A DNA stretch of 13,759 nt from Bispira polyomma (Eukaryota), in assembly GCA_965649765.1 (NCBI GenBank). It is one part of the record OZ287750.1 of this genome. One strand, written 5' to 3'. The notes beneath the pieces were generated by a model, which worked only from the letters and a program-made list of their open reading frames with translations, ran no database searches and was not told the origin of the DNA. Below, piece by piece: positions 6,803 through 10,256 of this stretch. Position 1 is the stretch's first letter, and every line of letters starts with the position of its first letter. Position numbers and translations under genes: made by a program.

Positions 6803-9800
6803 CTTGCTAAAGTCCATATCAGATGGTAATGCCAAACGCCTTACCAAACTCCTGAGGCATGGAGCGGGCCTAAAGCTCACCAAAGATGACATGAACAGTT
6901 CCCTATTTGTCGCAATCCACCAAAGCCGAGAAGAATGTGTGGCCTCTCTACTTAGTGCTGGAACTGATCCCAATTCTTCAGATTCCGAGGGAAAGCCGGC
7001 TTTGTTTGTGGTTGTAGAACAAGGCAGAGGAAATCCTACCATCTTGTCATCTCTTCTAAAGGCTGGTGCAAACCCAGATAAGGTTACTTACAATTCTCAA
7101 CAGACAGCTTTACACATCTCTTCCAGGAAGGGTTATCAGGTGTGTGTGAAATCTCTGTTAGCTGCGAAGGCTTCTGTAAATAAGCCAGATGGGGCGGGGA
7201 ACACTGGCTTGCATTATGCAGCCAAAGAAGGGCACGTGACAATAGTAAGGTACCTGTTGGACCACAAAGCAGATGTACATTCAAGGAATAACAATGGGGA
7301 GACCCCTCTGCACATTAGTGTAAAGTTCAAACATAACAATTGTATAGAAGAACTACTCTGCCATGGAGCTGACCCTGGCTTATCTGACAACAAAGGGCAA
7401 AATGCTCTGCTTCTTGCTTTGAAATTAGAAAGTAACGAACTAATTGATATGTTACTAGAGTATAAGTGTTCCGTGAATGCTCAGGACACACAGACAGGAA
7501 AGACGGTATTACATTGGGCAATACAAGGAGGAAATGTACAACTAGTTGAGAAACTATTAGGTCTGAACGCAGACCCGAATGTTCGTGATAGAGAATGGCA
7601 GACACCTTTCTTGCTGGCATTGAATATGAATCGCAAAGACATACTAGAATGCCTAATGAAGGCAGGGTGTGATATCACTGTGACAGATAGGTCTTTCAAT
7701 ACTGCATTACATATAGCTTCAATCAATGGACACCCTAATATGGTCCAGCTTCTGCTAGAGAAACGATTACCCATTGATTTAAAAGGATCTGGTGGATTAA
7801 GTCCATTAATGCTAGCTTCGTTGGGAGGGCATTTTGCGGCCGTTGAGGTATTGCTTGAATATGGTGCAAACTGTAGTCTGACTGATAGAAACCATGCTTC
7901 AGCTTTGGTCTATGCCATCTTGTCCAGAGGACAAAGTTCTACAATACACAATATCATCAAGCTCCTCATCAGGGCCAACTGTGATGTCAACTATGCAGCG
8001 AATCTTCTTAAAGTTACCAAAACTTTCAATATTGATCTAGGAAAGGGTATTGATGTTGAGGAACGTCTGTATACACCGTTAGAAATTGCGTTTTTAAAAG
8101 GTGACCCGGCAATATTTGTGATGCTTTTGACTGCCGGATGTGATGTCTCTAAGTTTCAATGTGACAAGGATATGACCATGATGAACTTCAAAAGTATCCA
8201 TTCTGACATTAAAAGTCGTTGGATATTGCTGCGGTGTATCAAAAAAGACAGGAAAAGAGTAAAATCACTGAAGGAGTTATGCAGAAGGCCAGTGTTGAAA
8301 ACTTTCACTAAGGGAGTCCATAGTACCATAAGAGCCTTGCCAATCTCGAAACAGCTGAGAAGCTTTTTGTTTTTTTCTGACCTAGACCAAGTTTGTCAGA
8401 GATATGCACAGAATAGTGAATCAGAGGCTTCCTCAGTGACTCCACCTTCAAGTCCCTTAGCTAAACCATCTTCACCTGTGGATGAACAAAATGAACGCAC
8501 AAATTCGCTGAGGAGGAATCGGCTGAGGAGTACCTTTCACAATGGTACACCATATAGATTGAACAATCCTAAGTCACCTACAACTCCAGTTTTACCTAGA
8601 GCAACCTGGGACAGTGAAACTAAGAAGACCGCTGATAAAAAGATATCAGGAAAAGCCAGGTCAATGTCACACTCGGAAAAGCCGATGACAGAAAAGACAG
8701 ACCATGCTCGAACTTCCTCAGAATCTGGTACAGGATTTACAACAGCCACTGTTTCTGCACATGGTCAAGAGAATCCAAAGTCCAAAAGTATATTTGATTT
8801 TCTAAAGCGAAGTAAACCTAAATCCAAGGATACTTCAAACGGGACTAAAGTGCGAAGTAGAAGAGCAAAGGATCCCAGGGATACAATATCTTCTCTCTTA
8901 CATGGAACAAGTGATGAATACAGAAGCTCGGGCCAAATCACACCTAAACCACTAGATATGGCTAGTATTGAGAAATTAAATGAAGTTGGCCGGTCACCTA
9001 AAGAGGACTATGAATCAGTCAATAAGATGATATATGGGACGGAAAATGAGGTTCAATTAGATCGGAGACCTGGAAGAGGATTAGATCTAACGCAAAAGGT
9101 GCACCTAGAAGGGGTGTCAGTCAATGGTCTATCAAATGGTCTAAGGGATATTTCTGATACTGTGACATCATATTCCTTTGGAGAGACATTACCAGCTGAG
9201 GATATCCCTGATGAATTCTTCTTTCATGGCAATGGACCTATTAAAACTGAGAACGGGAACAATGCTTTACCCTTAAATCCCACAGGATCTTTGAATAGAC
9301 CAAAGAGAAAAAAGAAACAGCTAGGTATGGATGCACTGTTATATGGTAATGGTGTTAATGGAAATACAACTGGTGACAGTTTGAAATGTGATGGTGATGT
9401 CATGAATACAATGGTAGCTAGAAGAAGAAGTAACAGTGCATCTGAAGCCGAGAGAAGAAATGACTCTAATAATACTGTTCCGAGGAGTAAAACGTCTGGG
9501 TCTGTGAAATCACGGAAGTCTCATGGTGGAGTGGTGAATAATACTAATAATCTGGAGGAAGATATTGCAAGAATGGCTCAGAGCATTTCCTCTACTTTTG
9601 AGAACTGCGATCAGAAATATTCTCCCTTGTTAGGAAGAGCACGCAATGACCAGAATGAAAACATGCTCAATCACATTGGTGAATCTAACAAGGCCATATC
9701 ACCTCAGGTTGACATCGGCTATCAAACCCAAGAATCTTCTCTAATGTCTCCTACCTCAACCAACTCCAAATCCAGCTTTGATTCTTCAAACAGTTCAGGT

Positions 9801-10256
9801 GCAAACATTCAGTTCCCTACTGGTGATGCCCAACTCTTGCAAAAATACCTCCATTCCCAAAATCCAGTGTCTTCTACTGGACCTGGTGATCCACTCACTG
9901 CGGCAAAGAACAGACATAACCTTGCTAATCAATCAGATACCTCTCACCTCATAAATCATAATGATGTACTCCGAGTCAACAATGCCAACCATGATACAAT
10001 CAGTAATTGCAGCATATTGAGCGCCCCGTCTTGCGATAGCTGTAGGTTTGTGAACAGGGAGAGACATAATTCTGATAGTGTTAGCTCCCTTAGTTCATCG
10101 GATTCTAGAAGAACCCCTAGTAAGATACCAATACTTCAGCCACACTGGACACCACAACCCAGCAGGAGTAAACTCCCTGTGCCAATAAGTCCAGTGACCG
10201 CTCAGAATGATGGGTACGGATCACTCCGCAGATCAAAGTCATTCAGGAAATACTAG
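6803..10256 (+). CDS. Terminal coding exon of an ankyrin-repeat and SOCS-box (ASB-like) protein with a long low-complexity C-terminal tail; 5'-partial (upstream exon not identified)
   Basis: Open frame of 1150 codons ending at TAG 10254-10256. About 13 ankyrin repeats (e.g. GNTGLHYAAKEGHVTIVRYLLDHKADVH, GETPLHISVKFKHNNCIEELLCHGAD, FNTALHIASINGHPNMVQLLLE) in 6804-8150, and a SOCS box at 8259-8375. GC content is clearly higher than in the flanks. The exon begins right after the acceptor AG at 6801-6802; the base C6803 completes a split codon (phase 2 intron). Confidence 0.93.
6804..8150 (+). other. Ankyrin repeat array (~13 repeats; the first and the last two are degenerate)
   Basis: Recurring ~33-aa G-x-T-[AP]-L-H...L-L-x-x-G-A-D/N-x-N pattern in the translation, with an insertion between repeats 12 and 13. 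Confidence 0.95.
8259..8375 (+). other. SOCS box (BC box plus cullin box)
   Basis: VKSLKELCRRPVLKTFTKGVHSTIRALPISKQLRSFLFF. The BC box SLKELCR fits S-L-x-x-L-C-R, and LPIS..LRSFL sits at the LP-phi-P..L..YL position. Confidence 0.85.

Follow-up and report, generated by a model that had tools for sequence, protein, structure and literature searches.

Mid-protein SOCS boxes, a variant Cullin box and SxIP-type tail motifs in an unnamed family of ankyrin proteins

In the ankyrin-repeat proteins ASB1-18, among them ASB7 (8y1u) and ASB9 (3zng, 3zkj and 6v9h), N-terminal ankyrins are followed by a three-helix SOCS box that bears the BC-box Leu and Cys. The position of that box at the C-terminus is part of the definition of the family (PMC3779351; papers are cited here by PMC identifier). 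Here we describe a gene from Bispira polyomma, contained in 13,759 nucleotides of record OZ287750.1 (assembly GCA_965649765.1; this whole stretch is called the window below), whose product, P0001, shares that order and those residues but departs from the ASBs in other respects. After its box come an extra helix and a tail of about 610 amino acids (aa) rather than the C-terminus, and its Cullin box reads LPIS instead of LxxP. In structural superpositions the identity of P0001 to ASB7 and ASB9 is only 21-24%. Because the terminal box and the LP-phi-P sequence both fail, P0001 and its relatives are not ASB proteins by definition, despite their ASB-like geometry.

Other described systems resemble single parts of this protein. 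SOCS1 likewise has a Cullin box without the final proline (IPLN in SOCS1, LPIS in P0001), but unlike P0001 it possesses SH2 and KIR domains, a C-terminal box and no long tail. The SxIP-type plus-end tracking proteins of microtubules (CLASP, APC and MACF1) share with P0001 the arrangement of SxIP/SxLP motifs in tandem, within sequence that is basic, rich in Ser/Pro and predicted to be disordered, with the difference that EB binding of P0001 is only predicted from the motif. SOCS or BC boxes in mid-protein are known from TULP4, where a long low-complexity region lies behind the box, and from Elongin A, LRRC41/MUF1 and PCMTD1/2; a mid-protein box alone is therefore a modest surprise, although none of these proteins has an ankyrin array and their recognition domains are unrelated. 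EB1 is a substrate of CRL3-KLHL21, a cullin-RING ligase (CRL), whereas in our proposal for P0001 the EB proteins would act as the carrier. That ligase, which serves microtubule and adhesion dynamics at the cell cortex, also has a different cullin and fold (PMC5031805). Our literature search, with subscription papers mostly outside it, returned no paper joining ‘SxIP’ and ‘SOCS box’ and, among the matches listed, no ligase adaptor that localises itself to plus ends, judged by title or the start of the abstract; matches for SOCS box, ankyrin and mollusc together concern viruses and a beetle, by their listing.

The family thus keeps the ASB-like box and geometry, places the box mid-protein, drops the Cul5 proline throughout and adds EB1-type motifs, and what is new here, as read from sequence, is the loss of the Cullin-box proline across the family together with the SxIP and RxxSxR motifs at the end of the tail. 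Should the motifs work, this would be a ligase adaptor bringing itself to microtubule plus ends; should they not, it would be one more lineage-restricted ankyrin-SOCS gene. With its Ser/Pro difference at one residue, the Cullin box also lends itself to a natural test of what tunes cullin affinity.

A large coding exon and a conserved family

The stop-to-stop frame comprises 1161 codons at 6771-10256 on the + strand. Since its first 32 bases are intron-like, the coding exon probably starts at 6803, with an upstream partner exon elsewhere: an AG acceptor occupies 6801-6802, 20 of the 24 bases ahead of it are pyrimidines, and a branch-point-like CTAAT stands at 6767, together giving a 3' splice site (6767..6802, +) for an intron that would be of phase 2. 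The homologues P0003, P0033 and P0285 carry [FC]S at the place matching this site. The exon (6803..10256, +) holds 1150 full codons and the stop TAG, 6804-10253 translating into the 1150 aa of P0001, and has no start codon at position 6803. Because homologue P0024 opens with MATMKS immediately ahead of the position equivalent to the exon start, its sequence suggests that the first coding exon is very short. A scan of 6.7 kb upstream for an in-frame ATG with a phase-2 donor did not locate this exon within the window, its sole candidate (6478-6506) being rejected as lying in a bin of high-copy depth. An assembly gap of 142 N at 4135-4276 could hide a small upstream exon, which may also lie beyond the window.

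Contigs of all three available DNA runs (one study with at most two samples, possibly the source) cover the open reading frame (ORF) with zero differing letters and zero gaps, in runs X1 and X2 by one ~7.4 kb contig each, in X3 by two contigs that overlap, and contig depth over the ORF equals that of the single-copy flanks. GC content is ~0.30 in the flanks versus 0.38-0.47 in the exon. Over the tail the frame contains 0 stops in 615 codons, for which base composition gives an expectation of ~1e-17, while the other five frames carry 18-76 stops each; GC by codon position is 0.44/0.48/0.34 there versus a flat ~0.30 in the flanks, and no GT[AG]AG donor occurs between the SOCS box and 10119. The original prediction, made from the letters of the window, had proposed a single open frame at 6803-10256 with a tail unlikely to be accidental read-through. 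Both proposals are borne out, the frame being stop-free behind a splice acceptor and the tail showing coding composition and conservation in relatives (see below).

Three sequence searches gave a family of P0001 and 19 homologues, all of the latter unnamed, and 14 homologue clusters looked up yielded no name. With a profile of the ankyrin insertion, last repeat and SOCS box, 18 of 121 proteins (P0001 included) score 112-245 bits and the next best 15; members P0284 and P0285 were added by a later search. Core identity to P0001 is 88% for P0002, 70% for P0003 and 40-49% for 15 other aligned rows, and 19 of the 20 members continue for 266-845 aa beyond the box (626 aa in P0001). By sequence this is a conserved, unnamed family with ankyrins, a mid-protein SOCS box and a long tail. 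Searching 1.84 billion representatives added no member, the results being swamped by long ankyrin arrays, and a metagenome scan gave 47 pattern matches, none related to the family. The proteins in the database look like calls made on contigs in a single frame, and orthologues split by introns could be missed for that reason. No named ASB appeared among the sequence matches, which is weak evidence in view of a word filter and, in two of the searches, the scoring of only ~8,000 candidates. In the Atlas an ASB3 cluster stands at 0.95, sharing 147 of 256 features, with recognition below threshold; the other clusters there are general ankyrin ones. Among the proteins collected is P0109, unrelated to the family, an ankyrin array of 1918 aa that carries a Pfam SOCS box (PF07525) and, behind the box, ~70 acidic, Tyr-rich residues.

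The order of domains, which the original prediction had given as ankyrins, an internal SOCS box at aa 486-524 and a tail of ~620 aa, agrees with both Pfam and the structural models. Pfam recognizes strong ankyrin families in P0001 (Ank_2, E 2e-95), and the array of ~13 helix pairs (aa 1-450; 6804..8153, +) has an insertion ahead of its last repeat. This insertion of ~25 aa (aa ~398-421, window 7995-8066), with a short predicted helix, is kept in aligned members and may shape the interface between ankyrins and box. A predicted long helix with a Leu-Leu pair invariant in the family (aa 466-484; 8199..8255, +) leads into the SOCS box (aa 486-524; 8259..8375, +), which comprises three predicted helices and the BC box SLKELCR with Leu489 and Cys493, and an extra predicted helix (aa 526-538; 8379..8417, +) comes right behind it. 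Searched with whole P0001, Pfam SOCS_box matches aa 486-522 at 20.3 bits (E 6.6e-4), below its 23.5-bit cut-off, and with a 91-aa piece alone it reaches 24.3 bits (E 3.7e-5), above the cut-off and over 37 of 39 positions; eight of nine family pieces match at E<=0.1. All nine members compared carry Leu489 and Cys493, whose ASB9 counterparts are inserted into Elongin C (PMC3779351). The LxxFL motif of the final box helix is likewise retained in the family.

A full-length AlphaFold model from a 5-row alignment contains ~13 ankyrin helix pairs, mostly at a per-residue confidence (pLDDT) of 73-97, and a tail at pLDDT 25-48. A model of aa 194-545 from a 29-row alignment (mean pLDDT 88.4, predicted template-modelling score, pTM, 0.86) places the box helices at aa 489-499, 505-511 and 516-522 (pLDDT 87-94) and the further helix at 526-538. 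Foldseek retrieves ankyrin proteins generally with this model, ASB7 standing at rank 48. The model superposes on ASB7 (8y1u) with Z 23.5 and a root-mean-square deviation (rmsd) of 3.1 over 294 aligned residues, spanning model residues 1-334, and on ASB9 (3zng and 3zkj) with Z 22.7 and 22.6 and rmsd 2.4 and 2.3, spanning model residues 40-332. Among the best 50 rows these three are the only ones to span the box, reaching model residue 332 or beyond (at least 332), and a wide structure search repeated the ASB7 and ASB9 matches. The SOCS box is therefore real and internal as far as profile and model go: the profile match expected by the original prediction is found in the box piece, and the predicted three-helix box superposes, together with the ankyrins, on ASB7 and ASB9.

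The Cullin box and the tail

In the variant Cullin box LPIS (aa 512-515; 8337..8348, +) Ser replaces the last Pro of LPxP, and this fourth position is Ser in 19 of the 20 members, Asn in one and Pro in none. The canonical LP-phi-P selects Cul5 (PMC4403949, PMC10509765), and the IPLN of SOCS1, without the final proline, does not stack on Cul5 Trp53 and binds 100-fold more weakly (PMC5908791). As the family lacks the same proline, weak Cul5 binding is predicted by analogy with SOCS1, alongside normal binding of Elongin BC. The second Cul5 contact of SOCS2 is an Arg two residues further on (PMC5908791), a position at which no family member has Arg and one of 20 has Lys. Against PDB sequences the box piece finds SOCS1 IPLN (6c5x) as its best match, a weak one (E 0.19), and the other SOCS-box proteins collected supplied 0 usable boxes as a control for position 4. 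P0001 was originally predicted to be an atypical E3 adaptor; the architecture stands, but the ligase role is probably weaker than was assumed, the Cul5 proline being absent in 20 of 20. The Cul2-box pattern PhiPxxPhixxxPhi has a proline at the same place (PMC5216831), and P0001 does not conform to it: the spacing I514-x-x-x-L518-x-x-x-L522 fits and the proline is absent. A switch to Cul2 is possible, without positive support.

The tail (8418..10253, +) is Ser/Asn/Pro/Arg-rich and predicted to be disordered, with islands of conservation, and the piece from aa 536 to 1150 gives no Pfam match better than E 0.22 and no NCBIfam match. The tail identity by blastp is 67% to P0002 and 41% to P0003 (E 3e-80); against the other 16 tails that of P0001 has no blastp match at E<=1e-3. 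Invariant in the three closest members are 217 of 615 tail positions and 52 of 612 tail 4-mers, in blocks that include SKSIFDFLK (aa 660-668; 8781..8807, +), a mid-tail block of highest conservation with a short predicted helix (aa 981-1019; 9744..9860, +), PSKIP and the last eight residues. The tail is, on this sequence evidence, coding and constrained. A reading of SKSIFDFLK as a PIP box was dropped, the pattern of Qxx-Phi-xx-aromatic pair being unmatched.

Near its end the tail of P0001 bears SKIP (aa 1106-1109; 10119..10130, +), an EB1-type SxIP motif 45 aa from the C-terminus, and SKLP (aa 1122-1125; 10167..10178, +), a second SxIP-type motif that is SRLP in P0002 and SKIP in P0003. The protein terminates in LRRSKSFRKY (10224..10253, +), an instance of the family's [FLV]xR[STR]xSxR motif that we take to resemble a basophilic kinase or 14-3-3 site. 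Counted over 19 members (P0284, with its short tail, left out), S[KR]IP occurs in 9 tails, where shuffling gives an expectation of 0.013-0.052 per tail; 13 tails have some SxIP-type motif within the last 70 aa, and 13 have the terminal motif. When each of 10 lineages is represented by a single member, S[KR]IP is counted in 5 (0.04 expected), any SxIP-type motif in the last 70 aa in 6 (1.05 expected) and the looser RxxSxR terminus in 6 (0.13 expected); among 249 non-family proteins the counts are 0, 7 and 0, respectively. Because the patterns were picked with the sequences in view and the lineages have a common ancestry, this recurrence is conservation and not independent origin. P0127 stops short of the terminal motif.

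The distance of S[KR]IP from the C-terminus is 38-62 aa across its carriers (45-47 aa in P0001-P0004, P0022, P0028 and P0285). The motif persists in clades without blastp tail similarity to P0001, with carriers on both sides of the deepest split of the tree, and a tree that holds the carriers together is disfavoured (approximately unbiased test, p-AU 0.029; 16 of the 20 members, the group having been named after an earlier tree was seen). This sequence distribution fits an ancestral S[KR]IP lost in some branches. EB1 is a partner of SxIP motifs that sit in disordered regions of basic, Ser-rich composition (PMC9926122, PMC7308724), and the last 65 aa of P0001 include 11 K/R, 4 D/E, 15 S and 8 P, the last 60 having pLDDT 27-31 from a shallow alignment. 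Selected EB1 aptamers favour S(R/K)IP(R/V), a preference that the S[KR]IPV of P0003 and five more distant members fits (PMC3967968), and tip tracking by TaMISHIP needs a single SKIP (PMC6033098). S/T-P sites at 1104, 1116 and 1129 flank the SxIP motifs of P0001. Phosphorylation of S/T-P near SxIP weakens EB binding. The idea that the tail adds localisation inputs has, with these motifs and their predicted EB binding, gained a concrete candidate.

Motifs resembling docking sites for protein phosphatase 1 (PP1) occur in other tails. SILK-like [KR]SILR, after the SILK-type PP1-docking pattern, is present in 8 of 19. RVxF-like motifs (docking pattern as in PMC4794898) are found in 6 of 19, with KKEVxF in four. 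The carriers are P0005, P0007, P0009, P0011-P0013, P0015, P0019, P0020, P0024 and P0074, with both kinds in P0019, P0024 and P0074, and all except P0005 stand on one branch (support 93). The tails of P0001-P0004, P0022, P0028, P0033 and P0285 have no PP1-like motif.

Candidate roles of the family

Our tentative preference, which we hold at somewhat less than even confidence from sequence, models and analogy, is that P0001 would be a localised, conditional ubiquitin-ligase adaptor, with Elongin B/C bound through the BC box, EB docking through the tail and weak Cul5 binding. In this mechanism the ankyrin groove would bind a degradation target, the internal box would load Elongin BC through its BC box, and the SKIP/SKLP motifs of the tail would tether the complex to EB proteins at growing microtubule ends. 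The SOCS1-like box would engage Cul5 weakly, for example where the adaptor is concentrated, and phosphorylation of the nearby S/T-P sites and of the terminal RxxSFR would be the on/off switch. Clearly more doubtful is the extension of this to a whole, so far undescribed animal family in which cullin-ligase adaptors would travel with growing microtubule ends through SxIP motifs of their own, with an attenuated Cul5 box and ubiquitylation only where they are concentrated, PP1 docking having been added in one branch.

Several observations weigh against a localised adaptor of this kind. S[KR]IP is absent in 10 of 19 tails and any SxIP-type motif is absent from the last 70 aa in 6 of 19, so SxIP is not required family-wide. 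As both the motif patterns and their search ranges were set with the sequences already in sight, and as the lineages share ancestry, the small P-values are not true probabilities, and the 249 control proteins, being mostly ankyrin arrays, are a lenient control. The residues at +1 of the two P0001 motifs are I and V, of which only V is among the selected EB1 preferences (PMC3967968). As to the box, its whole-protein score lies under the Pfam cut-off in P0001-P0004 and is absent in P0005, its pLDDT is under 50 in the full-length 5-row model, and the structural Z is set mostly by the ankyrins, with top rows tied; three further proteins from the wide search, ANKEF1 (9fqr), iPLA2-beta and AnkC, likewise extend to model residues 333-340, at lower Z and rmsd 3.7-5.6. 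Finally, P0284 has 47 aa after its box (its longest contig being 1,780 bases) and the cluster member P0126 ends inside the SOCS box; these two and P0127 may be frameshifts, contig ends or true short forms.

Of the alternatives, the one that survives best is a CRL5 receptor of ordinary strength and ASB type, in which the tail is a loose spacer with phospho-sites and SxIP does not act through EB. The ASB-like geometry of ankyrins and box suits it, as does a tail whose length varies over 266-845 aa and whose sequence is unalignable between clades, and at 52 invariant 4-mers in 612 the conservation of SKIP within the closest clade alone is unremarkable. We nonetheless judge it unlikely, for the proline that contacts Cul5 is absent from all 20 members and S[KR]IP recurs at a like distance from the end in clades that share no blastp tail similarity. 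Somewhere below this we place a cytoskeletal scaffold that is not a ligase, Elongin BC only stabilising it with no cullin bound, while ankyrins and tail gather EB, kinases and, in one branch, PP1. The family-wide loss of the LPxP proline and the PP1-docking-like motifs of one branch would agree with such a scaffold, and SOCS1 shows that a box binding Cul5 poorly can belong to a protein that acts mainly by means other than ubiquitylation, yet SOCS1 still recruits Cul5 via Elongin C (PMC5908791). The whole three-helix box is moreover retained, including LxxFL in its final helix, and P0001-P0003 are without the PP1-like motifs, so that we think a scaffold rather improbable.

A CRL2 receptor of the VHL-box type, the changed Cullin box picking Cul2 over Cul5, seems to us quite improbable. 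VHL itself departs from the Cul2-box proline at this position, which counts in its favour. So does the hydrophobic spacing of I514, L518 and L522, which fits the Cul2 box save for the proline (PMC5216831), but the proline of the Cul2 pattern is absent too, Pfam SOCS_box extends over 37 of 39 positions and the box superposes on the Cul5-type ASB7 and ASB9. We regard as very unlikely an autoinhibitory role of the tail end, in which the conserved C-terminal motifs would occupy the ankyrin groove of the same protein, much as happens in canonical ankyrins. The terminal motif is the most widely retained of the tail features (13 of 19), and autoinhibition segments bound to ankyrin repeats are known structurally, going by the entry titles of 4rlv and 5y4d, but part of this region is accounted for by its SxIP match, which belongs to a well-defined class of external ligands. 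That the tail is no part of the real protein, through read-through or splicing, deserves next to no credence in view of the stop-free frame (~1e-17 by chance), the 67% and 41% identity to relatives, the invariant blocks that continue as far as the final residue, the absence of a GT[AG]AG donor between the box and 10119, and long tails in 19 of 20 members.

Remainder of the window

Behind the exon, matches to the consensus mark candidate polyadenylation signals (10608..10782, +), namely ATTAAA at 10608 and AATAAA at 10746 and 10777. Eight other ORFs of the window have no Pfam match, and no tRNA or Rfam match was found in the window. In overall character the window resembles AT-rich animal DNA interspersed with dispersed repeats. 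High-copy dispersed repeats lie at ~986-1463, ~2570-2700, ~3351-3485, ~4285-4360, ~6400-6540 and ~11720-12680, their summed contig depth running from thousands to hundreds of thousands versus ~15-80 for single-copy DNA, and the short ones among the dispersed repeats look to us like short interspersed elements (SINE-like). A tandem repeat occupies 5627-5736, with a period of 49, 2.3 copies and 79% matches.

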